A DNA stretch of 62,678 nucleotides, counting the filler, from Basidiobolus ranarum (Eukaryota): NCBI GenBank assembly GCA_040143965.1. It is 8 parts of 8 records of this genome, joined end to end, with 100 filler letters (N's around TTAATTAATTAA, not from the genome) between each part and the next. Parts side by side here need not be neighbours in the genome. Positions count along the whole stretch, not along the records: positions 7,876 to 15,637 come from JASJQH010001068.1; 7 more parts are not named here. One strand, written 5' to 3'. The position numbers and the translations under genes are program-made. Positions 8,606 to 59,350 of the stretch are shown piece by piece; within the stretch, counting starts at the first letter, position 1; each line of letters starts with the position of its first letter. Below the pieces are notes generated by a model, which saw nothing but the letters and a program-made list of their open reading frames with translations, ran no database searches and was not told the DNA's origin.

Positions 8606-10608
8606 TTACTGCTTCTTGATCTTCCAGTTACCTGGCTTGGAGAGTTTCATGGCAAGTTTCTCTTTGTTCACAGGCTTGGTTTTGTTACGGTTCTTGTTTT
8701 TGACATTGGCCTTCTCGTAGTAATGTTGACCAACCTTCTTTTTGTTGGTGGTCATACGGGTCTTCTTGGATTTTTTATCATCCTCACTTTCCTCGTCATC
8801 ACTGGTTCTCTTGGTCTTAGGTTGAGTGGAGGCTTCTCCGCTCTCTTCAGGTTGCTCTTCCTCATCATCTTGACCCATCTCACTTACTTCCTCACCAACA
8901 ACACTCTCAAAGACTTCATCCCAATCAGGAATCTCTTCGGCATCCTCGGTAGGTTCAGCACCCTCAACTTCGGATTTCTCCATCATATCTGGCTCTTCAT
9001 CCTCCTCTGGCTCTTCTTCTCCTTCTCTTCTCAAATCATCAGGTAAGAAGTCGGCGGCAACTTGGATCTTACGGAAGATTTGTTCAACACCAATCTTGTT
9101 CTTACCCTTGCTATCGACAGAGCTATCCTCACTTGTGGCTTCTTTGGTTGGCTTCTCGTTTTCAGGTGGGGCGGCGTAGAAAGGAATCTTACCACGTAAC
9201 CAATCGTTCAATACCATCTTGGCAACTGCGGTTAAATCAGGTTCACCACCCTTGAGTAGCTTTCCGGACTTGCTAGCGAGCTGAGTAAGGAAATCAACAT
9301 GATCTTCCCAATCATCAAGCTCATAAGTTCTACTGATGTATTCACGTCTGACACGTTCAAGAATTTGGGGGATATGATCTTCAGGACCCTTGATATTTTC
9401 AACACGAACAACTCCCTTGAGTACGATATCAGTTTCTGTATCATCAGTAGAGGGATGGACAACACCAGGACAATCGATAAGATAGATTCTCTTCATCAAA
9501 GTGATATATTGCCAGACCTTAGTTTCTCCAGGAATGGGTGCAACGGTGCATACCTTCTTCTTCTTGAGTGTATTAATAATGGAACTCTTACCGGTATTAG
9601 GATAACCGATAAAACCAACACTGATTTGCTTCTTATCCGCGTGCAACTTGGCAAATTGACGAAGTAATTGAATCAATGAACCTTTACCAAATGAATTGTT
9701 AACACTGGCATGGAAGGCTAAGGTAGGGTACTCTTGAGAGAGATGTTTAACCCAACGAGCAGTAACCCAGGTGGGCACCAAGTCACATTTGTTAAGAACG
9801 AAGATCAAATGCTTGTGTGGAGTCTCTTTCTTCATGTGACTGATCACATTTTGACAACGAGTACCAAGTGGATCTCTGGAGTCGAGTACATGAATTACCA
9901 CATCAGATGAATCGACAACCTTGTACAATTCATTCCAAATACGTTTCGATTGACCTTTCATGAAAACAGCTTCACGAGCTTCGGTGATATAATCGGTAAT
10001 CTCATTGGCAAGAAGGGAAACATCCTTCTTCTCGCTGTAGTTTTCTAAAGACTCCTCAACGGTGGTGGCCATATCCTCCAAGCTACTAATGTTAAGCTTG
10101 GGCTTCTTACGTTGAGATTTAGGGCCAAAAGTGTGATCGAAAGTCTCAGTCTCCAACATATGCATTCTAGATGTTTTGGTGGGATCGGTCAATAAACTCA
10201 TAGGGAGCTTATTCTGACGAAGAAGAACCTGATAAGGATCATTAACCTTAGTCCCGAGCTTCTCACGGAAATCTTCGAGGGCTTTTTGACCGATAACACG
10301 AGTGTTACCTAAAAGATGTAAATACGAAATGTTAATGCCAATTCAAATACTTTAAGAAAATCAAATATGAACATACCAAACCACTTGCGATTGGGTTCAA
10401 CACGGGCGACTGGGGTTTCTTTACTTTGGAAGGCAGCAGCTTTAATAACGTTTCCGTCTTTGTCGTGAACGGCTCTGCCAGAGTTTAACATATTAACAAA
10501 TTTGACCTTCTTTTTGTCACGATAAAAGTTCTCCCCCTTCAAACGGGTTCCATAGGGTTCGTTATCGGAACGAGCGAGTCTATTCTTTTCCTTCTTAAAT
10601 TTACCCAT
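8606..10608 (-). CDS. NOG2: Nucleolar GTPase Nog2 (exons 10377-10608, 8606-10308)
   Basis: NGP1NT N-terminus ([27 protein letters not shown]), circularly permuted G motifs ([19 protein letters not shown]), acidic/basic tail. Confidence 0.97.
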
Positions 10609-11151
10609 GTTGATGAAATGAAAAGGAAACTTGACTGATAGAGTTTTAAGAAAGGTAAGAAAGAATTATTACAAGCGTATGAAGTAAAACTTTGACCAGC
10701 AATAAGGGCGGGAAAAAAAGATATTAGCTCACTATGAATAGGCTACTTATTTAGGAGTCTACCAACGATTAAACCGTAATTTTCAGCTTTTGAGTAGTCC
10801 TTTTTTTTTCTTCCCACTAGTTGGTGGAGTTTTTTTTTTTTTTCTGACCTTCAATCTTGCACACTAGGATTGAGAAAAAAATTCGCTAGGATCTCTTCCA
10901 CCACTCAGACTAAGCTGAATCATTTAGGATCATGTGGTTAGGGCTAGTGGTTATTTAATTCACTAAATACACCAAATACACTAAATAGCAAGAATGATTA
11001 AATAAAGTACAAAGGTGGTTTTCATTTATTTATTACAGAAATGTGAGTTGGTGGACCCGCATTTATGCATATATTGTGAATGGAAAAGGCTGACATGGAT
11101 TGTATTCTACCATGACCATGGCATCAACTCACCCATAATATGAGCATTTTT

Positions 11152-11668
11152 CTATTTTCTCATTAAGAGGTATATATTTTCAGATACTGTGATGTTTTGA
11201 AGGTGTCTAAAATCTCCTTCAAGAGCCATCAACAAACCACCATAGGAAGCATATACAGATACTTTGGAGCCGGAGCTTTCATCGTACTTGTAGACCTTTC
11301 CGTACATGACGTATTCGTAATCATCGGCGAGGTTCTTTTCAGTACGCTCTCTCCAAGACTCTTTCTTTCCACTGGCATCCAAATCCCGGGCACCATCTAA
11401 AGAGAGTGACGAAGCCAAGACTAAAGAAAACTTCTCTCCAATCTCCAAGGGATATAACTCGTTGTTAAAGTCCAAAGTCAACTCCATATCGTAATTTTCT
11501 GAACGAGCATTTAAACGAGAAACTAGGAAGAATCAGAGAATTAGTTACCATCAGAAACAACCCTTTGTACCAAGAAAAAGATATACCTCTGTCGAATTTC
11601 TTGCCGTCCCGATCAACATCTTTAATATCAAAAATATCGGAAAAAAGGATGTTTTCTCTCTTGTCCAT
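11152..11668 (-). CDS. RPB8: RNA polymerase I/II/III shared subunit Rpb8 (exons 11587-11668, 11152-11522)
   Basis: LFSDIFDIKDVDRDGKKFDR|VSR..LADDYEYVMYGKVYKY..YASYGGLLMALEG. Confidence 0.97.
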
Positions 11669-12140: not shown

Positions 12141-12485
12141 TTAAGATTCCATCAATTCACGAAGACGACGGACGGTACTGCGAACAGTAGCAGCAGCGGT
12201 GGTGGAAACAGTCCAAGCACCACCAGCCATGACCTTACGGCATCCACGGCATTCCCAAATACCAACGGATTGACGTTTAACGGCATCCTTACCGCAGAAA
12301 GTACAGGTGTACTTGGCGTGTTGAGTGATTTCCATCTTCTTCACTTGTTTACGAAGAGAAGCACCATAACGGGTACCGTACTTACCGACAACTCCGACCT
12401 TTTTGGTACGTTTGGCCTATCATATAAAGCGTAAGGTTAGATGGATGGTTGAGTGTTCCGCTATAGACGACAATATACGTACCAT
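12141..12485 (-). CDS. RPL43: 60S ribosomal protein eL43 (ATG-only first exon 12483-12485, exon 2 12141-12416)
   Basis: [52 protein letters not shown]; 92 aa. Confidence 0.97.
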
Positions 12486-13015
12486 ATTGAATGGGTGAGA
12501 TGGACAAAAAGAAGGATGTACCTCAGCTATCGCTCTCATTTTTGTTTGCAATTCAGAGTCCCAAATTTTAGGGTACATTGATCTTGGAATTTTTGGTGGA
12601 CATAAATAATTGAATCTGATCTTCACGAATAGTCAATCTAAAAATATCCATTTCGTTTGACAGTCCAGGGTGACGGAAAATGCTTCAGGTGAATTCACCT
12701 CGTGGACTTCAAGAATCTGCGGAGATCACGCACTGTCGATGGCATGATGCCATAGAATTAGAATCTTTACTTGGCAATTCGAGATTTCTCCAGATTTGAG
12801 GCGCATGAAACTCATGGTAGTCAATCACCTCATGACGAAGTGGCCAACTTGGGCGTGTTCATTGATGTCCTAAATTCGCAAGTGTTTGTCGAGGAAGAGT
12901 TATTGCATGTCTCTCTCTCCCTCTTGCTCCCTACCTTATTCGAAGTAAAAGGTTTCCTTGGACTATAGACCAATTTACATTTTACAGCAAGTTATTTATT
13001 TCGTGAGTGACCATC

Positions 13016-14730
13016 ATGAGATGTTCGATGTGTTTTCCAGATATAAACTGGGACGAGATTTTCGGGTACTTATTTTATTCCTTGATCAGTGCAGTACCTC
13101 CTGGCTAACATAGAGTATAAGGTACAATACTGCTCGAATAGTCCAAGTTAGAGACCGCAGGCTCGGTTTACTTTACTTATTCTTTCGTCTCGTCATCGCT
13201 GCTTATATAATCTATGCTATCATTGAAAATAAGTCGTATCAGACACAACAGCCGGTGGTCCCTGGTATGTACTAGACCATATCTATGACTATGGTAACTG
13301 ACTAAATAGGCTCTATTCAGGTTCAATTCAAATGACTTTGATCGAGCCACCTGGTGGACTCCAAACACAAGATTATTGTCGCCGTCGTAATTGTCTGTTT
13401 TGGACTACCAATCAGATTGTGTATGTGGGATAGAAATTATATATGTATACTCTCTGATAAAATACTAACTTCACTTTGCTGACCTGTTAATAGAGTGCGA
13501 CAAGACCCAACTGCGGTGTTTTTAACTACCAGTGTATCGATGAAAAGATATTTGCAACCACCTGGGTGTAATAACTTACTTCCGGGTATCCCTGGATGTA
13601 AATTTGATTTACAAGTACCCATCCAAACCGAAGAATACTTCATTGCAGATATTGAGAGGTACACAGTAAGTGTTATGTGCTTTTGTACACAGGCTTGCGG
13701 TTTATCACGCTAATACTTCTTTAAAAACATAGTTGTTAATTCGACATTCTATGAAGCGATTTCCAGAAGGTCCTTTGATTCAAAGTAACTCCTTACCTGG
13801 TTCGTTGATAGGAATGAATGGGAAAGTGTACCCCAATGCAGATCAAGGTCACTTCACCAATGAAACTAGACTGGATAGTTTACCAGGGGATCTTATGTCT
13901 ATTGGAACGATACTAGGTGCATCAAACGTGTATTTGGATGGTAAGAATTCAATTATTAAATCCATGGTAGCTATGGATCTAACAGGCATGTCGCAGATCT
14001 TTCACTAGCTCCAGATGCGGATCGTAGGATAGGGGAGACATTGAGAGCCTCCGGTGTATCTATACCAGTGAGCATTAAGTATCAAAATCAACCCCTGGAT
14101 CCTGGAGATATCTCTTACCAATACTTCCCAGATTCTACCAATGCCGAAGTGTACGGCTTTGAGGAGGCACAATATGATCCAGAAAATGGAAGCTACCTTG
14201 TCTATAAAAGACATGGGTAAGTTAGTAAGAGATCTCCAAGATGATAAGCTCTAACTAATCATCGGTTCAATTATTCATTAGAATTCAGCTAGTTTTCTCT
14301 CAAACAGGTATGATAAGTTAGAATAACGTTCTCTTTAAAATCTCTAAAATTACGTTTAGGAAATCTTGGTCGTTTCTCATTACTCCTCCTACTTACCAGT
14401 CTAGTGGCTGCTCTCGTACCCTTACAAATAGCCCGTTGGTTAATCAATTTACTTATGCTCCGCACTTTTAAAGAACGTCGCATATATAAAAAAGCCAAAT
14501 ATTCTCGCACGCAAACCTTACGAACCATACGTGAGCGACGACGTCACCGTCTCACCAACCGTACCAATTCGAGTCAAATGAAGAACGAGGAGGAGCCACC
14601 GGCCGTCAATAAGCCACTACCAGACCTACCCCCAACTCAACTAGATGAAACAGATGAAGACAGGATCATAGTGCTAGAGCTTGGTAAAAGCGGATATGAG
14701 GGAGAAACATCTCAACGAAGCTTAGTCTAG
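13016..14730 (+). CDS. P2X receptor-like two-TM ligand-gated cation channel, 8 exons, 425 aa
   Basis: Exons 13016-13065, 13122-13264, 13321-13420, 13494-13665, 13733-13940, 14009-14216, 14282-14307, 14360-14730 splice in frame (1278 nt). Hallmarks: FGYNTARIVQVRDRRLGLLY (YxTxK/R plus TM1), FLTTSV, IERYTLLIRH, YKRHGIQLVFSQTGNLGRFS (pre-TM2), and IYKKAKY (YxxxK) after TM2. Confidence 0.88.
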
Positions 14731-15508
14731 ATTGGATTTGTTCAAAATATCTATTAGCAGTCCATCGAGAAGGCCTTTGCTCAGTAAAAGACTGCTCGCA
14801 CTGATCATATGAGATCATCCATAGCTTGGAATACTATATACATGTCTTCATAAACTCTCTCACTCAAAATCTAGGTCCATCTGTTTGTTGTACAGTCCCC
14901 ATGGTGTTGATCTATTCTCTTTTTGATTACTGATATATTATCCTCATCGAAAAATCAACCTTCCCTTATCCTTTAATTATGCATGAATAAACCTACATCA
15001 ATGTTGAATTCAAAAAACTAAGGTTGTTGACTTGATGCACAAGCATAACCTTCTTCGGTGCATGTGGGGAATAATGACATGACTAACATTATGAATACAA
15101 TAATTACGAATACAATAGCAAAATTTGGAATGAATTAGAAAGAGCAATTTTATACCAAGACATGGTAACATATATAAGGAATGGATGTTAATTGACTGCT
15201 TATTTCATTCATACAACATTAGGATTAAGTGTAACGGGGTACCTTTTAAATCGGAAATTACAGACGGTGCGTCACTAAAGCAACAATTCAAAAGCAATAA
15301 ATCAATCATTTCCAATCCGATAAATCAATGATTTCCAATAAACCAACCCGCTTGCGGATAAATAGAAATTTTATCATCGGGTATTTTTGTCACTCCATCG
15401 GATCTTCTTTGTGACATAATGAATATTATCCAAGTATGATGAGATGCTCTTGTCAGATACTGGAATTTAATCTTACGCACTTCTGGCCCTCGTCTGGCCC
15501 AGATCATT

Positions 15509-15568: not shown

Positions 15569-15737
15569 CGGAGAACATAGCTTTTGGAGCGATTCTATTC
15601 CTGGAAAGAGGATAGGAAAGGTGCTGGTTATATTCCTNNNNNNNNNNNNNNNNNNNNNNNNNNNNNNNNNNNNNNNNNNNNTTAATTAATTAANNNNNNN
15701 NNNNNNNNNNNNNNNNNNNNNNNNNNNNNNNNNNNNN

Positions 15738-16919
15738 AATCGTGGAGCGAGCTATGCTGCTGGAGGGGTATGGATTCAGATAGTTGCGGATCAAAAGTTA
15801 TGGATGTAACTAATATACTTCATCGAATTCTAGGATCCAGATGAGACTACTATACCAAATATTTTCCGTCATTATAACACTACAATCAGAGGACCCTCTG
15901 TTGGAGACCACCTAGTAGAGTTATGTTACGGTAGGCCAGTGAAACTTAATCCTAACTAGCTTCAATCGATTAAACGTGACTCGAAGGTTCACTCTGTCCT
16001 CCATTTCAATATAAGCCCGAAAAGGACAATCTCAATGCCGCTCAGACCGGTGCATTGTCCACCAATCTCGAAACAGAAGTAGATTATTTACTGAGTCGTA
16101 TTAAAAAGTACCCGGAAATCGATCTTCAGAATGATTGGAAAATACTCACTTTGCAATTGGGCAGCAACGATATGTGCCAATCATGCCTGGATGCTCTCCA
16201 ATTCACTGGTCCTGATGTATATGAGAAGAACATCCGCTCCGCTATCGATCGTGTTAGAAAGGCCGTACCTAGACTTATCGTCAGCCTTGGTAGTTATACA
16301 TGCCACGAAGATATGTTTCTTATTTCAACTCAACTCAATTCCTTCATTCTTTAGGTGGGGTCTTTGATGTTAGTCAGACTTGGACAAGAACCAAAAATGA
16401 GCCATACTGGTGAGTTTTCATTGGCCTTGACTATCAATTACAGACCATTCTAATGATAAATTCCAGTCAAAGAATCTTGGGTTTACCACACTTGAATCTT
16501 GAATGCCCATGTGCTCTGCTTGAAGGCAAAATAGGGGAAGAAACCAGGAGGAGCATGGATAAACGTGCTGCTGCCTTTAACCAGAGACTTATTAAGATCT
16601 ATCAAGATTACAAGCGTCAACAAAGTGATACTTTCGCTTTGACCCTTCATCCACTTGACGTTGATCTTTCCAGCCTTCCCATCGACCATCTCTCCAACAT
16701 CGATTGCTTTCATCCAAGGTCAATATGAATCCAGCCCTAGCCCTAATGTCCTTACCCTCTAACATTCATCAATTTCATAGCCGCAAGACCCATGCTTATA
16801 TCGCCAAAGGTCTGTGGAATAATTTCTGGATTCCGTTTGAACAACGCCGTAAGACCTGGTCCTTTGACCAAAACATAGAGTTCTATTGTCCCAATGAGAC
16901 TGATCGAATCAAAATCTAA
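15738..16919 (+). CDS. GDSL/SGNH lipase, phospholipase B1-like, 5'-partial, multi-exon
   Basis: RGASYAAGG|DPDETTIPNIFRHYN, LNAAQTGA, DWKILTLQLGSNDMC, LECPC, catalytic DCFHP; stop 16917-16919. Confidence 0.88.
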
Positions 16920-39192: not shown

Positions 39193-39924
39193 NNNNNNNN
39201 NNNNNNNNNNNNNNNNNNNNNNNNNNNNNNNNNNNNTTAATTAATTAANNNNNNNNNNNNNNNNNNNNNNNNNNNNNNNNNNNNNNNNNNNNCGTGTGAA
39301 TGAAGAGAGGCGTGAAATGGGTTGTTGGTAACACCAATAGCTACACCTCTAGCCTAAATGCACACTTCTCACATTTAGCTTTACCCATTCGTAGCGTCGC
39401 CTGTTCAATCACTTTATCAGCCGCATCGTCTATCCCCAAATGAGAAGTCCATTGGACCGAAAGTAGAACATGAAATAGTCCATCGAATATTTACCTCATG
39501 ACCTTTTACTTGCTACCTGCCTATTTTGCCCCCATTTTTACTTTATTGGCTATGATTGGAGAGATTTCCGTAATATTGAGTCAACGGAATACGCTCGTTT
39601 TGTGTATACCGTTCCTGTAGGACTGATCTAGCATTGGTCAGGTGGAAAACTATTAGAGTCCCGATAATACAGCAAATCATCGCACCGAGAATGTGAGAAA
39701 CTTCCTAAAGAATCAAGATCATTTCCTCCAAAAAGGAAATGCCTGGGATTGGATTACCGAACTTAGTTGGACTGAACAAGTATAAAACCACAGCACCTTG
39801 TCTGTGATTTGGATATCATTCAAAGCCTGCTCCTTTTACCAACGCTTCCATCACAAAGCGTCTGTCCTTTCGGTTTCCAATCGCTCAAGTATAGCATTTA
39901 ATATATTCATACATATTTCAAGAC

Positions 39925-41172
39925 ATGTCAAAGTACGACGAAAAATCACTCTCTTACGAGGTAAACGAGGACCCTGAATCTGGGAGAACCAGTTCCTCCT
40001 TCGGTGCTTACTTCAATATCGTTTGCGTTATTGCTGGATTGGGTGTTCTACAAATGGCCTCCGCCTTTAGACAAAGTGGTTGGTTTGGCGCCGTCATTAC
40101 AGTATTCTGTTCTCTCCTGTGTATCTATACCGGTCATCTCCTTATCAAGTGCCTATATTTTGATGGTAAAAATAGACTCGCAGGCTACTCTGCCATCGGC
40201 GAGGCAGCTTTTGGAAAATTTGGCAAGTATATGGTTGAAGGATTCCTACTTTGCTTCTACTTTGGTGTTGCGTGCATCTTCATTATCTTGATTAGTCAAG
40301 ATCTCTCAGAATTGTTTGAACTCGTCAACGTGCATATCAATCTGAAAATATGGACCATCATTGCTGCTGTTGTTATCTGGATCCCATTTGTTGCCTTCAA
40401 GGCTATGAAAGAGGTGGAGATTCTAGCGTTGTTTGGTACCTTGGCTACATTCTTCACCGTCGTTGTCATTGTTGTTGTTGGCCTTATGGATTGGCCTAAT
40501 CACAAGTTCGAAACCCATGAATTTATTAAGCCCGCTGGTCTTCCCATTGCTTTGGCCTCCATCAGTTTGTCTTTCGGTGGTAGCCCCGTATTTCCTGCAG
40601 TAGAGAAAACCATGAAGCGACCAAAATCTTGGACTACAGTTTTATCATGTGCTATGGGAACTGCCCTCGTCCTATACATTCTTGCAGGTGTATTTGGATA
40701 TCTTGTTTATGGAGATTCAGTTGTATCACCTATATTTAAAAATTTGACCAAAAATGGACTCACCGTTGCCGCAATGATTGCTATGACTTTCCACATCATG
40801 TTTGCCGCACCTATTTTACTTATCAGCTTCTCGTTGGAGGTAGAGAAATGGCTCAAAATCACCGATAGTTACATGACTCAAACTAAACAAGTAGTGAGCC
40901 GCTTTTTCTTGAGAACTAGTTTGATGGTTGTATTCTGTCTAGTATCCATGTTTGTACCAGCATTTGGTGATTTCATGTCACTCGTAGGTGCTCTCACCAA
41001 CTGTCAAATCATCTTCGTATTCCCAGTAGTCTTCTACTTGAAACTCTATGGATGGAGAAATATTCCTTGGTACGAATTGATCTTGTGCGCTATTATCCTC
41101 GTTGTAGGTATGCTTAGTTGTGTGCTGGGCACCATCGATGCTATTACGAGCTTAAAAGCCGCCTTAGGTTAA
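39925..41172 (+). CDS. Amino acid/auxin permease (AAAP, Aa_trans) transporter, intronless
   Basis: SSFGAYFNIVCVIAGLGVLQM, YTGHLLIKCLY, SFGGSPVFPAVE, FGDFMSLVGA; about 11 hydrophobic segments. Confidence 0.92.
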   Translation: MSKYDEKSLSYEVNEDPESGRTSSSFGAYFNIVCVIAGLGVLQMASAFRQSGWFGAVITVFCSLLCIYTGHLLIKCLYFDGKNRLAGYSAIGEAAFGKFGKYMVEGFLLCFYFGVACIFIILISQDLSELFELVNVHINLKIWTIIAAVVIWIPFVAFKAMKEVEILALFGTLATFFTVVVIVVVGLMDWPNHKFETHEFIKPAGLPIALASISLSFGGSPVFPAVEKTMKRPKSWTTVLSCAMGTALVLYILAGVFGYLVYGDSVVSPIFKNLTKNGLTVAAMIAMTFHIMFAAPILLISFSLEVEKWLKITDSYMTQTKQVVSRFFLRTSLMVVFCLVSMFVPAFGDFMSLVGALTNCQIIFVFPVVFYLKLYGWRNIPWYELILCAIILVVGMLSCVLGTIDAITSLKAALG

Positions 41173-41793: not shown

Positions 41794-43056
41794 TTATGAT
41801 AAGACAGCAATCAAATTTTTCACCGCATCAATAGTACCCAATACACAACTAAGCATACCGACAATGATGATAATGGCGCACAAGATCAATTCGTACCAAG
41901 GAACAGTTCTCCATCCATAGAGTTTCAAGTAGAAGACAACTGGGAATACGAAAATAATTTGACAGTTGGTGAGAGCACCTACGAGTGACATGAAATCACC
42001 AAATGCTGGTACATACATGGATACCAATGTAAACAAAACCATTAATCCAGTTCTCAACAATGGACGATACACATATTGTTTGGATTTAGACATGAAAGTG
42101 TCATTAATGCGAAGCCATTTTTCAATATCAAGTGAGAAACTGATCAATAGAATGGGTGCGGCAAACAATACGTGAATGGTAATGGCGGCAGTGGCGGCAT
42201 AGGTAAGTACAGCTCCTTGTGGGAAATTTTGAAAGATAGGTGAGACTACTGTGTTGCCATAGGCAAGATATCCGATAACTCCAGCTAAAATGTATAGAAC
42301 CAAAGTGGTAAGCATGGCACATGTCAAAATTTTGGTCCAGGCCTTTGGAGTCTTCATTGTCTTTTCTACGGCTGGGAATACCGGACTACCACCAAAAGAT
42401 AAACTGATGGAGGCTAGAGCGATGGGAATGCCAGAAACCTTGACAAACTCATGGGTGTACTTCTTACTCTCATCCAAATCCTTAAGTCCAACAATAAGAA
42501 TAACAACAACGGTAAACACGGTGGCAAGTGTTCCAAATACAGCAAGGATTTCGACTTCTTTCATGCTCTTGAAGATGACAAATGGTATCCAGATAACCAC
42601 TGCTGCGATAATAGTCCACACTTGGCGAGATAAGTGGACACTGGTTTGATCAACCATATCCTTTAAATTGATACCAATCAACATGATAAAGGCACATCCG
42701 ACACCGAAATAGAAGCATAGAAGGAAAACTTCAACTAAATATTTTCCAAATTTACCAAAGGCAGCTTCGCCAACAGCGGAATAACCAGCTAGTCTGTCTT
42801 TTCCATTGTAGTATAGACATTTGATCAAAAGATGGCCAGTGTAGATGCAGAGGAAGCAGGAGAAGACGGTGAGGAAGGCTGCGAACCATCCACTTTGATT
42901 GAAGGCATATGCCATTTGAATGACACCCATACCAGCAATTACGCACACAACGTTGAAATAAGCACCAAAATTGGAGCTAGTTGCGGTATGAGGGTCATCG
43001 CATACTTCAAATGTGAAGTCTTTTTGACAGGAATCTTTCCCTTCAATATCTGACAT
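41794..43056 (-). CDS. AAAP transporter paralog, intronless, convergent with 39925-41172
   Basis: Same motifs; collinear with the neighbouring gene. Confidence 0.92.
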   Translation of the reverse strand: MSDIEGKDSCQKDFTFEVCDDPHTATSSNFGAYFNVVCVIAGMGVIQMAYAFNQSGWFAAFLTVFSCFLCIYTGHLLIKCLYYNGKDRLAGYSAVGEAAFGKFGKYLVEVFLLCFYFGVGCAFIMLIGINLKDMVDQTSVHLSRQVWTIIAAVVIWIPFVIFKSMKEVEILAVFGTLATVFTVVVILIVGLKDLDESKKYTHEFVKVSGIPIALASISLSFGGSPVFPAVEKTMKTPKAWTKILTCAMLTTLVLYILAGVIGYLAYGNTVVSPIFQNFPQGAVLTYAATAAITIHVLFAAPILLISFSLDIEKWLRINDTFMSKSKQYVYRPLLRTGLMVLFTLVSMYVPAFGDFMSLVGALTNCQIIFVFPVVFYLKLYGWRTVPWYELILCAIIIIVGMLSCVLGTIDAVKNLIAVLS

Positions 43057-44643
43057 TGCGAAATCGGTGGTTTGTTAGTTTTTCGGATTTTATCACTTGT
43101 TCCGGCAAGATTTTCGGTACAGAAAAGGGAAGATAGGTTTCTTGGTATCTTAGTGTTTGAATGCCGGAATACAGAAGGTGGGGTCTCCTTTTAAATAAAA
43201 TTTCTCTTCAAACTCGACAAACTCTATCATAAACTATCCGCCAATGCAGATGACTTGCTGAATGTCAATAAGTCTAACTGAAGTAGAGAAACTTCCAGCT
43301 TGTCACACTCCCAACGATTGACATTTAGGGACTTGGTGGCGGTTACCATTGGATGAGCAATAAGGTTAGCAAATAATTTTACAGATTTTGGATCCACTCA
43401 GGGATATGAGTCAGACATTGTCAACAGAAATGGAGCAAAAAAGGGAATTCAAAAGCCAAATTCCCAATTAATCCAGAATCATGAATTTTAACTCGTGAAT
43501 AGTAGTACCTATCGTTTCCAAATCATATATATATATGAACATATATATACTTTCTTGATCGAAAAGAAATCACTATTGGTGTACACCATGGGGTTGGTAA
43601 TTAGGGTAATACAGAGAAAAAAATCTCTTAATATAGAAACAGTCAAGTTACTAGTCATGCGACTTTAGATAATGAGCCCTCCAAAACTGCAATTTCAATA
43701 TTACCTTTAGCTATCCTTGGAATACTATCAGCACCATAGTTGTTAGGATTGGGGTGTTTACACCAAAACTGTCTAAATTTAGTGATAACATGATGGTAAG
43801 CTATCGATGGTGGAGGTTTTACTTTTGCCTAGCTCTATCTTTTAGTAGCTACGCTCAGTATCTAGAGAATTTGTGTTACCGTGGTGGGAGAAGTACCGAT
43901 AAAAAGTTTGAATCTCCAGCATAACATGAAGATCGGCAATAGATATAACACTAGTATGAATGACAGCGGTACCTAGATCTATTGCCGGTTTAGTTGGTAA
44001 CCGGAAATATATGGATGACATATTGTTGATATATACTAATTTACCATGTAGATACATTTTTATACTAAATGAATATTTCTTGGTTGAGCATAGCAGATTT
44101 AAACCTTTCCTATGGGATCACACCCTTCTAATATCACACAAATATCTACGACACCTATAGGCATTTTCTTACCTATAAATAAATCGTGCAAAAGGCATGA
44201 AGAATGATATCGCATCTGAAGCTATCCACAGTTTATTAGTGAAATGCCACAAGTAGAACATTGGCACGCATGTTTAGTAGATATTATAAAAGTTTGAAGT
44301 GTGTGGAGTGGCTGAGTATCAAAGCTATTGTGAGCTTGAGAGATGTATACCGATGACTGGAAATAATGTGCTTATACTGTTGAAGGTAATACTTAAAAAT
44401 AATGAAGCTGAGATTAAAACTGTCCATAAACCTCAAATTCAAGTAGAGAAATCACAGTCAGTACAGTATACTAAATATAAACTAGCACCCATAACTGATT
44501 CACTTTTTTGCACACATTTTTCAAATGACAATACCTTGCTATTTCTCATATAACCTACTCAATGACTAAATAACAAAACGAGACCTTACCACTCCTTATG
44601 ATATTATATACACTTTTATTCAACATTATTAGCAAGTTGGTTT

Positions 44644-58095: not shown

Positions 58096-58544
58096 GCTGT
58101 ACTACAAGATAATATGTTTTCAAGATGCGTGACAGGCCATGTTTTTGGACATACGTTACACACAAAGGATATCAAGTAATCCTACGTTAATCCCATTTTT
58201 TATTACCAGATCCGCATACCAAAGTTATAGAGTAGTACCATATTTATATGCTGCATTGTATGATAATTGCATATTGTATTAACAGTTATAGATATTTAAA
58301 ACTTGGTATGGCTTAAGACTAAAAGAATAGAATAAGTAATCACAAATAAAATAATATTTACCAAATTGCATAATAGTAATGTTTTAAATTTATGATTCTG
58401 ACAATTTTCAAGTTCTTCTTGGAATATTTTCATAAAGGAAACATTTTTAAGTCCTTAGGTGATTCCAGTCCTTACTTGGGTATAAAGTCACAATATATTA
58501 GGAGAGTGCTGTCCTAGCTGTCACACCACTTGGTGCTTTTCATC

Positions 58545-59350
58545 CCCACTGTACCCTTATTTCTGACCAAAGGAAAAGAGACACTTGGAGTTGATTACAA
58601 CTTCAATGGCTGGGGGAAGAAAACCCCTCTCAAGCACCGCAAGAATGATGGGAGTGTATCTCGTAACTATCTAGCTCACCACAAGTTTCCTAGGCTCCAA
58701 TCTAGCCTGATTGCTGAAGAAGGGGCTATCGAGACTGATGGCCAGGGAACTCTGTTACTCACTAAGAGTAGTATTGTGAATAACAACCGGAATTCTGGTA
58801 TGAGTCGGAAAGAGATTGAAGCTGCTCTCAAGTCTGAGTTTGAGATCCAGAAAATTATTTGGCTTAAAGGAGTCAAAGGAAAGGATATTACTGACTCGCA
58901 TGTGGATACCTTGGCTCGATTTGTTGCACCAGGCGTTGTGGTGGTTAGTCGCCCAGGGCCAGCTAGAAAGAATGACCTAGACTCTGCTATCTGGGCTCAG
59001 CAATATAGCCAAGCAATGCAAGTCTTGACTCAAGCTACTGATGCAAAGGGGAACCGACTGAAGATCGTACAACCACCTGAACCTAATTATGAGAAAATCA
59101 GAGGAATGCCTGCTGAAGGAGCGCCTGATGAAGTGTCCCTGAAGGTATTTGGAGACTCGTTTTTGGCATCCTATGCTAATTTTTACCTTGCCAATGGAGT
59201 CATCATCGTGCCAGAATTTGGTGATGTAGAAGCGGATCGGATGGCACAGGGTATTCTTCAAGGAGTATTCCCTTGACGACAAATTGTTTCCTTGAATATC
59301 GAGGTGGTGGAGGTATTCATTGTGCAACCCATGACCAACCTGAAGTTTAG
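58545..59350 (+). pseudogene. Agmatine deiminase / PPAD-family pseudogene, intronless
   Basis: GVDYNFNGWGKK, EEGAIETDGQGTLL, DITDSHVDTLARF, SYANFYLANG. Premature TGA at 59274-59276, then a frameshift before GGGGIHCATHDQPEV* (TAG 59348-59350). N-terminal part missing. Confidence 0.87.

Follow-up and report, generated by a model that had tools for sequence, protein, structure and literature searches.

A divergent P2X-family gene with eight exons in the fungus Basidiobolus ranarum

The window analysed here, a 62,678-nt stretch of Basidiobolus ranarum DNA, carries on its plus strand a gene (13016-14730) that, when rebuilt from the raw sequence, runs from start to stop codon in a single intact frame through eight exons and seven introns. 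The introns are short (56, 56, 73, 67, 56, 65 and 52 nt, in order) and all seven have GT..AG borders, and the coding sequence of 1290 nt specifies 429 amino acids plus the stop codon. The original prediction of eight exons splicing in frame is therefore correct, except that it put the product at 425 amino acids. It also described the gene as hidden by its introns; however, the spliced 429-residue product is, letter for letter, the NCBI entry “hypothetical protein K7432_012377 [Basidiobolus ranarum]” (P0001), which means that gene predictors already find it. Genes for a Nog2-type GTPase, Rpb8 and ribosomal protein L37ae lie upstream and one for a GDSL lipase lies downstream, and tblastn found no second P2X-like copy within the window. 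The exons are as follows:

Exon 1, 13016-13065, plus strand: amino acids 1-16 and 2 nt; predicted cytoplasmic N-terminus with the conserved D-x-x-W-D-x-I-F, aligning with the N-terminus of the family; donor GTACTT
Exon 2, 13122-13264, plus strand: YNTAR (13123-13137) and predicted transmembrane helix TM1 (amino acids 29-53, 13156-13230)
Exon 3, 13321-13420, plus strand: first strand of the predicted ectodomain, amino acids 65-98; G65 in a split codon; Q68, T70, I72; C84 and C89, both invariant in the family
Exon 4, 13494-13665, plus strand: predicted ectodomain, amino acids 98-155; C123 and C133, both invariant in the family
Exon 5, 13733-13940, plus strand: predicted ectodomain, amino acids 156-225, with H160 and a loop (191-198) modelled at low confidence
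Exon 6, 13997-14216, plus strand: predicted ectodomain, amino acids 225-298, with R241, V276-Y277-G278 (in the place of NFR) and K295-R296-H297
Exon 7, 14282-14307, plus strand: 26-nt micro-exon, IQLVFSQT (amino acids 299-306), with Q300 where relatives carry R or K
Exon 8, 14360-14730, plus strand: GNLGRF, predicted TM2 (amino acids 314-341, 14380-14463; R332, N336), YKKAK (14485-14499) and the predicted cytoplasmic tail

Homology speaks for the predicted splice junctions: of the six split codons, three yield glycines that are near-invariant across the P2X-like family, namely G65 (conserved in 32 of 37 fungal and 84 of 99 other relatives), G298 (36/37 and 92/99) and G307 (34/37 and 95/99). 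The latter two flank micro-exon 7, whose 26 nt code for part of the best-conserved motif of the family. All sequence features named in the original prediction could be located in the rebuilt product and its model, i.e., TM1, TM2 and the motifs YNTAR (18-22), KRHGI (295-299), GNLGRF (307-312) and YKKAK (349-353). Two of these correspond to the family signatures YxTxK/R and YxxxK, which have been named as the N-terminal and C-terminal P2X motifs, respectively (PMC3853471).

The gene encodes a P2X-family protein, a relative of ATP-gated channels. The whole protein matches the Pfam family PF00864 in two stretches with 66.1 bits (E 3.9e-18; cut-off 27), in agreement with the P2X-like identity first proposed, and exons 2 and 8 match by themselves, with 33.6 bits over profile positions 3-48 and 17.5 bits over positions 315-360. 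PF00864 is likewise matched by 55 of 55 aligned relatives. A search with the family profile led to human P2X4 (9bqh, E 1.3e-35) and retrieved 34 PDB sequences, every one of them a P2X receptor; 5f1c, the sole PDB row of this search without P2X in its name, is titled tick P2X receptor in the Foldseek results. In the AlphaFold (AF2) model (pLDDT 86.3, pTM 0.74) helices 29-53 and 314-341 flank a beta-rich domain, with low confidence in the loop 191-198 and the tail 384-429. The anticipated P2X fold was recovered with Foldseek: among the PDB matches listed, 46 of 46 are P2X receptors (best E 2.0e-18, probability 1.00), with a target TM-score of up to 0.63 and 13-19% identity in the structural alignments. 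According to the model, the protein consists of two transmembrane helices around a large ectodomain, and by homology both termini would lie on one side of the membrane.

As a homotrimer, the protein was predicted with a score of 0.72, compared to 0.00 for the best of three controls; contact agreement in the trimer runs was at least 74% and the pLDDT of the partner at least 68. In calibration, 21 of 30 proteins solved as one-chain pairs attained the mark for this score, compared to 0 of 23 solved as single chains; among eukaryotes, 17 of 29 did so overall, but just 1 of the 7 that have no older solved relative. Since P2X trimers have already been solved, the score may stem from resemblance to these structures and need not be independent evidence. 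Where the modelled copies meet, 63-66 and 68 of one contact 246-252, 266-282 and 300-307 of the next. Gene structure, family membership, fold and residue pattern are thus observed, and we infer that the Basidiobolus protein assembles as a trimer and acts as a channel, as we infer its location, ligand and physiological role.

This divergent family is nearly invisible to word-index protein searches, which found 2 and 9 proteins, and an exhaustive HMMER search yielded 831 representatives at E<=1e-3. The orthologue P0002 in the independent genome of Basidiobolus meristosporus is 81-82% identical; together with the 100% match to the NCBI protein, it indicates that the contig comes from Basidiobolus and not from a protist or chytrid, an origin that would have refuted the original prediction. 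The nearest named relatives, all of them unstudied “hypothetical proteins”, are 32-37% identical and occur in Syncephalis, Jimgerdemannia, Mortierella, Glomeromycotina, chytrids and blastoclads. By taxonomic group, the named near relatives belong to Zoopagomycota, Mucoromycota, Chytridiomycota, Blastocladiomycota and Monoblepharidomycota, plus a nucleariid, with Dictyostelium, a choanoflagellate and Syssomonas in the sister groups; these taxon statements refer to 30 of the 150 best-listed representatives, looked up by name, and three further names. The protein is a member of this divergent “Dictyostelium/fungal” P2X branch. The presence of relatives in many early-diverging fungi, among them Zoopagomycota and Mucoromycota, means that the gene is not special to Basidiobolus and that it was probably inherited vertically within fungi. 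B. ranarum itself is assigned to the phylum Basidiobolomycota by NCBI and is not known to have a flagellated stage. Among its nearest named relatives, Syncephalis, Jimgerdemannia, Mortierella/Haplosporangium, Diversispora and Geosiphon are likewise non-flagellated early-diverging fungi, and their proteins show 33-37% full-length identity; the forms in Mortierellaceae reach 1018-1193 amino acids through C-terminal extensions, in which no Pfam domain was found.

The consensus of the branch comprises G-S-[VI]-R after TM1, four cysteines, H160, R241, E-[YF]-K, N-R-H-G-I-R, Q-T-G-x-[IL]-G-x-F and [DE] in TM2, and Basidiobolus departs from it by R68Q, K278G, R300Q and D/E336N. The family-typical residues are R at position 68 (30/37 fungal and 61/99 other relatives), K at 278 (29/37 and 76/99), R at 300 (24/37 and 65/99) and D or E at 336 (36/37 and 86/99). 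Moreover, R332 in TM2, a lysine in B. meristosporus, stands where the family has T or S. A basic residue is missing at both 68 and 278 in 6 of 117 relatives, and the Basidiobolus pattern of basic residues at 68, 72, 278 and 295 is found in none of the 117. Syncephalis (P0003), Jimgerdemannia (P0004) and Diversispora (P0006) keep R68 and K278, unlike Basidiobolus, and in P0003 and P0006 a basic residue (K or R) stands in place of Q300 and a glutamate in place of N336.

The ATP contacts of human P2X1 include K68 and K70 after TM1, the NFR motif and K309 before G-I-R; residue equivalence was taken from the numbering in PMC2787382 and from residue counts in the alignments made here. The positions of K67/K69 of human P2X4 correspond to T70/I72 in the profile alignment or L71/E73 in the single-sequence alignment, and the NFR position reads V-Y-G, or G-F-E in an alternative alignment, so that the animal NFR arginine is absent either way. 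The K309/K313 position is occupied by K295, three residues before G-I-R, which is the sole basic contact kept (Q in B. meristosporus); the near-invariant R296 is retained as well. Four of the five canonical animal ATP contacts are absent. The ectodomain has four cysteines (C84, C89, C123, C133), all near-invariant in the family, compared to ten in animal P2X, and lacks the five-disulfide pattern of the latter; the profile alignment matches C123 and C133 to two human P2X4 cysteines and puts C84 and C89 into an insertion specific to the family. Animal P2X receptors (e.g., human P2X4 9bqh; P2X2 9z32 and 9ddv; P2X3 5svk; P2X7 9e3n) share with the Basidiobolus protein the fold, topology and both signature motifs, the G-I-x motif before TM2, the two aligned cysteines and an equivalent modelled trimer interface.

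Among characterised systems, Dictyostelium provides a close comparison. P2XA-E of D. discoideum belong to the same wider sequence group, although identity is only about 27%; as in Basidiobolus, the sequences are only distantly similar to animal P2X and have not conserved its ten cysteines (PMC3853471), and the canonical lysines are partly missing in dP2XB and dP2XE (PMC2787382). Dictyostelium P2XA is reported to work despite the absence of all ten animal cysteines (PMC3853471). Four of the five Dictyostelium receptors are described as ATP-activated and the receptors as residing on the contractile vacuole (PMC3774368; PMC2787382), while P2XC gave no ATP current (PMC2787382; PMC3774368); the assays are reported to have required low Na+ and varied pH (PMC2787382). 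One of the 150 best representatives, the “P2X receptor” P0087 of D. firmibasis, carries the family consensus: it keeps R68, K278 and R300, all three of which are lost in Basidiobolus, and has S and D at the TM2 positions where Basidiobolus has R332 and N336.

We consider it likely that the gene encodes a P2X channel subunit of the divergent branch that descended vertically, resembles the Dictyostelium receptors in location and role, and has an altered pocket. The ligand-gated pore would be made by three subunits, each with a large ectodomain that is stabilised by cysteines and flanked by two transmembrane helices. By analogy with Dictyostelium, this channel might be situated in the vacuolar or another endomembrane, possibly in the plasma membrane, with its ligand domain facing the lumen or the outside, and might release ions for osmotic, turgor or Ca2+ control; Basidiobolus hyphae are not known to have a contractile vacuole. 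In the Basidiobolus lineage, three basic residues of the inter-subunit pocket have been replaced and TM2 carries a different charge at its inner end, and the channel probably differs from its relatives in agonist sensitivity or ion selectivity. ATP is the default candidate ligand. The missing canonical lysines do not settle the matter, because a Dictyostelium P2X without both of them is described as still ATP-responsive (PMC2787382), and family membership is no guarantee of ATP gating either, because Dictyostelium P2XC is reported to give no ATP current. Family and fold agree with the ligand-gated signalling channel of the original prediction, but its attribute “purinergic” is not established, as most canonical ATP-contact residues are absent.

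A possible, although rather unlikely, alternative is that the protein has kept the P2X fold and lost the response to ATP, in which case it might bind another ligand, be constitutively open, have an altered selectivity owing to the TM2 charge, or serve only as a modulatory subunit. The disappearance of R68, K278 and R300 from the modelled contact between subunits, an arrangement of basic residues seen in none of 117 relatives, the exchange of T/S for R332 and of D/E for N336 in TM2, and the very long stem branch of Basidiobolus (1.22-1.77 changes per column) all point in this direction. In addition, non-nucleotide ligands have been suggested as one reason why dP2XC and dP2XD gave no currents in oocytes, and dP2XA and dP2XB are reported to pass Cl- (PMC2787382). 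However, the protein retains conserved columns at the family median, and predictions from residues have failed before in this family, e.g., for dP2XE (PMC2787382). The modulatory option is further weakened by the tblastn search of the 62,678-nt window, which found no partner subunit of Basidiobolus there.

It is doubtful that the protein is a classical purinergic receptor, i.e., a cation channel of the plasma membrane that opens when ATP from outside the cell binds to an animal-type pocket; ATP from the animal gut or from damaged cells would be examples of its sources. P2X fold and family membership, both signature motifs, K295 at the position of an ATP-contact lysine and the retained R296 would fit such a receptor, as would the reported ATP gating of Dictyostelium P2XB without the first lysine and of P2XE without both (PMC2787382). 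Against it stand the absence of four of the five canonical contacts, the glutamine that replaces K295 in B. meristosporus and the replacement of the family-typical basic residues R68, K278 and R300. Moreover, for the non-animal relatives that have been characterised, a predominantly or even exclusively intracellular location is reported (PMC8199792).

It is very improbable that the gene is decaying or silent and has no function today. Several conserved charged residues are lost, and B. ranarum has P327 where B. meristosporus, 33 of 37 fungal and 91 of 99 other relatives have leucine. But the frame is intact over eight exons with canonical splice signals and conserved glycines coded across junctions, the P2X fold is predicted with confidence (pLDDT 86.3), and P0001 agrees with the family at 57 of the 66 conserved columns scored (86%), a share that equals the family median and rules out that it is a degenerate outlier. 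The B. meristosporus orthologue, whose gene model is short at the N-terminus, is intact over 361 aligned residues, and identity between the two species is higher at family-conserved columns (46/50) than elsewhere (246/307).

Trees were calculated from an alignment (A2) without 14 proteins longer than 700 amino acids and without P0153; 122 of its 138 rows, each with residues in at least 75% of core columns, entered FastTree, and 48 chosen rows (36 of the fungal clade and 12 others) were used for IQ-TREE and the AU test. The quick IQ-TREE tree places the gene inside a 38-row group (SH-aLRT 84), every named member of which is a fungus or a nucleariid, and FastTree places it inside a starred 39-row clade. 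No firm sister group was obtained within the fungal clade: FastTree groups the Basidiobolus pair with zygomycetes (support 93), IQ-TREE weakly with chytrids (87, fork drawn open), and the AU test does not reject the grouping with the zygomycete clade (p 0.586) and makes no choice between the two. Contamination or horizontal transfer is unlikely: that the gene is non-fungal, from a protist or chytrid contig or by recent transfer, is hardly credible in spite of the very long stem branch, the unstable sister group and the horizontally acquired genes reported for Basidiobolus (10.1101/2020.04.08.030916), given orthologues in two independently sequenced Basidiobolus species, flanking genes that are ordinary nuclear housekeeping genes plus the GDSL lipase, seven short GT..AG introns, a tree position among fungi and the outcome of the AU test.

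According to two reviews (PMC3853471, PMC8199792), P2X receptors occur in animals, amoebae, algae and “basal fungi”, for which three zoosporic species are cited, and both reviews treat the fungal P2X-like proteins as predicted or putative only. The homologues predicted in Allomyces, Spizellomyces and Batrachochytrium (Cai 2012, via PMC3853471, PMC3410928) resemble the Basidiobolus gene in being predictions only, and chytrids and blastoclads fall into the same clade here; they represent flagellated lineages, in contrast to the non-flagellated Basidiobolus, and are presumably orthologous. Our literature search brought up no publication that deals with P2X in fungi without a flagellum.

The finding is real but modest, as the gene is already annotated with a Pfam match in public databases, and its value is likewise comparative and modest. 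The P2X family persists beyond zoosporic fungi in non-flagellated lineages, including the ecologically important Mortierella and arbuscular-mycorrhizal fungi. Basidiobolus itself is an animal-gut associate and occasional pathogen. For hyphal fungi, from which few ligand-gated ion channels are known, the protein is a concrete candidate for such a channel, and its natural pocket variants offer a way to ask how the divergent branch recognises ATP. A more far-reaching and speculative idea, which we would not expect to hold in full, is that an endomembrane P2X of the Dictyostelium type outlasted the loss of the flagellum in terrestrial fungi, and that the Basidiobolus copy has a rebuilt pocket with a non-ATP ligand or an altered selectivity. 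The fungi concerned would be Basidiobolus, Syncephalis, Mortierellaceae, Endogonales and the arbuscular-mycorrhizal Glomeromycotina, the gene being missing from model Dikarya, and the changes invoked are R68Q, K278G and R300Q in the pocket and T/S332R and D/E336N, which alter the charge of TM2 at its inner end and possibly favour anions. If true, this would mean that hyphal fungi possess an unrecognised ligand-gated ion-release system.

The gene at 13016-14730 (+) is confirmed as a complete gene of the P2X family, carried by an early-diverging, non-flagellated fungus, and this core of the original prediction is supported by Pfam, PDB and Foldseek matches. The Pfam scan that had been proposed gives the whole product 66.1 bits (E 3.9e-18) against the P2X_receptor profile, PF00864, whose cut-off is 27. 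When exons are tested singly, exon 2 matches profile positions 3-48 (33.6 bits) and exon 8 positions 315-360 (17.5 bits), and four other exons show no PF00864 match; the ectodomain is therefore very divergent. Every one of the 28 PDB sequences matched at E<=1 is a P2X receptor; human P2X2 ranks first (E 3.3e-11), and the alignment is confined to the surroundings of TM1 and TM2. An AlphaFold2 model built from 138 sequences (mean pLDDT 86.3, pTM 0.74) has helices 29-53 and 314-341 flanking a beta-rich domain, and the P2X fold on which the prediction depended was recovered by Foldseek: P2X receptors make up 46/46 of the PDB matches listed, with a best E of 2.0e-18 and a target TM-score of up to 0.63. 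All 55 members of A1, an alignment of relatives, match PF00864, and a profile built from A1 finds human P2X4 (9bqh) with E 1.3e-35.

Read in three frames, 12700-15100 contains eight + strand open segments with short AT-rich stretches between them, and GT..AG joining of these segments gives the following exons:
13016-13065, + strand, exon 1
13122-13264, + strand, exon 2
13321-13420, + strand, exon 3
13494-13665, + strand, exon 4
13733-13940, + strand, exon 5
13997-14216, + strand, exon 6
14282-14307, + strand, exon 7 (26 nt)
14360-14730, + strand, exon 8

The seven introns measure, in order, 56, 56, 73, 67, 56, 65 and 52 nt, with the donor sites GTACTT, GTATGT, GTATGT, GTAAGT, GTAAGA, GTAAGT and GTATGA. 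This structure, rebuilt from the raw sequence with all junctions GT..AG, agrees with the eight exons and seven introns predicted to be in frame, and every motif named beforehand was found (YNTAR 18-22, KRHGI 295-299, GNLGRF 307-312, YKKAK 349-353); the predicted product of 425 aa was four residues too short, the spliced CDS of 1290 nt encoding 429 aa plus a stop. Introns split a codon at six of the seven junctions, and three of these codons encode glycines that hardly vary across the family: G65 (shared by 32/37 fungal relatives and 84/99 others), G298 (36/37; 92/99) and G307 (34/37; 95/99). Exon 7 codes for part of the best-conserved motif of the P2X-like relatives, and the AlphaFold model is confident at every exon junction. 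Conserved split-codon glycines, the exon 7 motif and the predicted structure thus support the putative splice junctions.

A search with exon 8 only returned P0001, a 429-aa 'hypothetical protein K7432_012377 [Basidiobolus ranarum]' that equals the spliced product letter for letter. The gene is not hidden, as had been supposed, because the public model already has the same eight exons, and its fungal relatives are many. The same search returned P0002 (369 aa), named 'hypothetical protein K493DRAFT_361585 [Basidiobolus meristosporus CBS 931.73]', which is 81-82% identical to the B. ranarum protein. P0002 lacks TM1, has first residues unlike those of B. ranarum, scores 25.2 bits with Pfam (just below the cut-off of 27) and begins inside the ectodomain; its model is therefore probably short at the N-terminus, the gene predictor having probably overlooked exons there.

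In the NCBI taxonomy, B. ranarum belongs to the fungal phylum Basidiobolomycota; the species is not known to have a flagellated stage. The window (38% G+C, 616 N) is ordinary eukaryotic nuclear DNA, and no second P2X-like copy was found within it. The neighbouring genes are:
8606-10665, - strand, Nog2/NGP1-type GTPase, upstream
11152-11532, - strand, Rpb8, upstream
12141-12416, - strand, ribosomal protein L37ae, upstream
15980-16354, GDSL lipase fragment, downstream

A run of N lies at about 15640-15690, ~900 bases downstream of the P2X-like gene. Elsewhere, two long frames without introns (425 aa at 39895-41172 (+), 426 aa at 41794-43074 (-)) point at each other, and both match the full Aa_trans transporter profile (~240 bits), which looks like a recent inverted duplication. 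An open frame of 252 aa at 58518-59276 (+) scores 208 bits against PAD_porph, the Porphyromonas-type peptidyl-arginine deiminase; its origin may merit attention, because bacterial gene transfer has been reported into Basidiobolus.

Exhaustive searching with HMMER yielded 43 representatives at E<=1e-30, rising to 336 at E<=1e-10 and 831 at E<=1e-3. Outside Basidiobolus, the best of them share 32-37% identity along their full length. Names come from 30 of the 150 listed representatives (12 of the 30 without an organism name) and two further fungal proteins. Non-flagellated fungi are represented by Syncephalis fuscata, Jimgerdemannia flammicorona, Diversispora epigaea, Geosiphon pyriformis, Mortierella (two records) and Haplosporangium (two records); zoosporic fungi by Blastocladiella (two species), Sorochytrium, Paraphysoderma, Fimicolochytrium, Synchytrium, Powellomyces, Gorgonomyces, Phlyctochytrium and Gonapodya; and other lineages by the nucleariid Lithocolla, the choanoflagellate Savillea, Syssomonas and Dictyostelium firmibasis, whose UniRef name is 'P2X receptor'. 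No Dikarya or Mucorales occur among these names, a sample too small for a claim of absence. Of the neighbouring protein Atlas clusters, one is commonest in Chytridiomycota and another in Mucoromycota.

In the FastTree tree (122 rows), the Basidiobolus pair shares a group of 11 rows (support 93) with Syncephalis, Jimgerdemannia, Haplosporangium, Diversispora and Geosiphon, nested in a starred clade of 39 rows where only fungi occur among the named members. An IQ-TREE quick tree built on a selection of 48 rows puts the pair weakly beside chytrids (87, fork drawn open), with the remaining zygomycetes as a starred clade. The Basidiobolus stem is 1.22 changes per column in the former and 1.77 in the latter, and the exact sister group is not firm because of this long branch. 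Grouping Basidiobolus with the zygomycete clade is not rejected by the AU test (p 0.586), the constrained tree being 1.7 log units better. The P2X-like gene is accordingly read as fungal, with vertical inheritance as the simplest account.

The NCBI name 'cytochrome c oxidase subunit 1' is carried by P2X-like proteins of Mortierella sp. GBA43 (P0005), two Haplosporangium strains (P0015, P0158), Gonapodya sp. JEL0774 (P0012) and Phlyctochytrium bullatum (P0049); P2X_receptor is the sole Pfam hit in P0005, and P0012 and P0049 match P2X_receptor as A1 members. This naming looks like a propagated annotation error. P0103 (817 aa) has an N-terminal P2X_receptor domain and, behind it, several EF-hand domains at residues ~458-691. 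Eleven long relatives of 1018-1724 aa (P0005, P0014, P0017, P0018, P0021, P0027, P0032, P0034, P0040, P0069, P0152; those with names are Mortierella) have the P2X domain in their first ~400 residues; the very long C-terminal extension that follows lacks any Pfam match at E<=1e-5 and could be a true long tail or a fused gene model. A 54-aa 'hypothetical protein [Clostridium senegalense]' (P0160) shares a 90%-identity cluster with a Powellomyces hirtus P2X-like protein; it is probably a piece of eukaryotic sequence that strayed into a bacterial assembly.

P2X receptors have been placed in 'basal fungi', as predictions only, for Allomyces, Spizellomyces and Batrachochytrium (PMC3853471, PMC3410928, PMC8199792), a statement that goes back to Cai 2012 as cited in these reviews. 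Full-text literature covering few subscription journals yielded, as judged by title and abstract start, no related paper on P2X in Basidiobolus or Mucoromycota; on P2X in early-diverging fungi it yielded none. By title and abstract start, chytrid and P2X literature contained nothing on non-flagellated fungi, and the mycorrhiza and P2X matches listed contained nothing on fungal P2X. Within these searches only, P2X in non-flagellated fungi is not in print.

The family has 67 conserved columns, of which P0001 is scorable at 66 and agrees at 57 (86%), the family median (0.866; rank 57th from the bottom of 120). A degenerate protein is rejected by this retention. Between the two Basidiobolus species, 46/50 conserved columns are identical vs 246/307 others, as purifying selection would give. 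Three copies of residues 14-345 modelled together score 0.72 vs 0.00 for the best of three controls; P2X trimers are already solved, and the score therefore indicates likeness and may derive from those known structures. The trimer mark was reached by 21/30 proteins solved as one-chain pairs and 0/23 solved single chains, and by 17/29 eukaryotic proteins, with only 1/7 among those without an older solved relative. Trimer runs share at least 74% of contacts (partner pLDDT at least 68), and the modelled contacts join residues 63-66 and 68 in one copy to 246-252, 266-282 and 300-307 in its neighbour.

Canonical ATP-pocket positions were located by residue counts in the alignments, with equivalences as given in PMC2787382:
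hP2X4 K67 / K69 (hP2X1 K68 / K70): T70 / I72 in the profile alignment, L71 / E73 in the single-sequence alignment
NFR (hP2X1 290-292): V276-Y277-G278 in the profile alignment, G278-F279-E280 in the single-sequence alignment
hP2X1 K309 (hP2X4 K313): K295 in both alignments

K295 is Q in B. meristosporus and mostly N or D across relatives. The divergent branch has conserved basic residues of its own:
position 68: R in 30/37 fungal and 61/99 other relatives; Q in B. ranarum, a position that the P0002 model does not reach
position 241: R in 36/37 fungal and 92/99 other; R in Basidiobolus
position 278: K in 29/37 fungal and 76/99 other; G in Basidiobolus
position 296: R in 31/37 fungal and 88/99 other; R in Basidiobolus
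position 300: R in 24/37 fungal, R in 65/99 and K in 20/99 other; Q in Basidiobolus

Both Basidiobolus species share the same residue at 241, 278, 296 and 300. In 117 relatives, columns 68, 72, 278 and 295 are all occupied; a basic residue is missing at both 68 and 278 in only six of them, and none has the Basidiobolus pattern over these four columns. Since the modelled contacts between copies include 68 and the ranges of 278 and 300, the replacements would lie at the subunit interface, the place of ATP binding in animal P2X receptors according to PMC2787382. TM2 of Basidiobolus carries N336 at a site that is D or E in 36/37 fungal relatives and 86/99 others; four residues before it, B. ranarum has R332 and B. 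meristosporus K in place of the customary T or S.

For Dictyostelium, the same paper reports that mutation of P2XA Lys67 (hP2X1 K70) or Lys289 (K309) disrupts currents, that P2XB, without the first lysine, and P2XE, without both, keep ATP gating, that P2XA and P2XB also pass Cl-, and that five of five P2X proteins face the vacuole lumen (PMC2787382). Missing canonical residues would thus make ATP gating of the Basidiobolus protein less likely without removing the possibility. The most interesting result at the residue level, one that may bear on ligand or selectivity, is that the Basidiobolus lineage, as judged from alignment and modelled contacts, has lost three interface basic residues kept by its relatives and has altered the charge of TM2 at its inner end.
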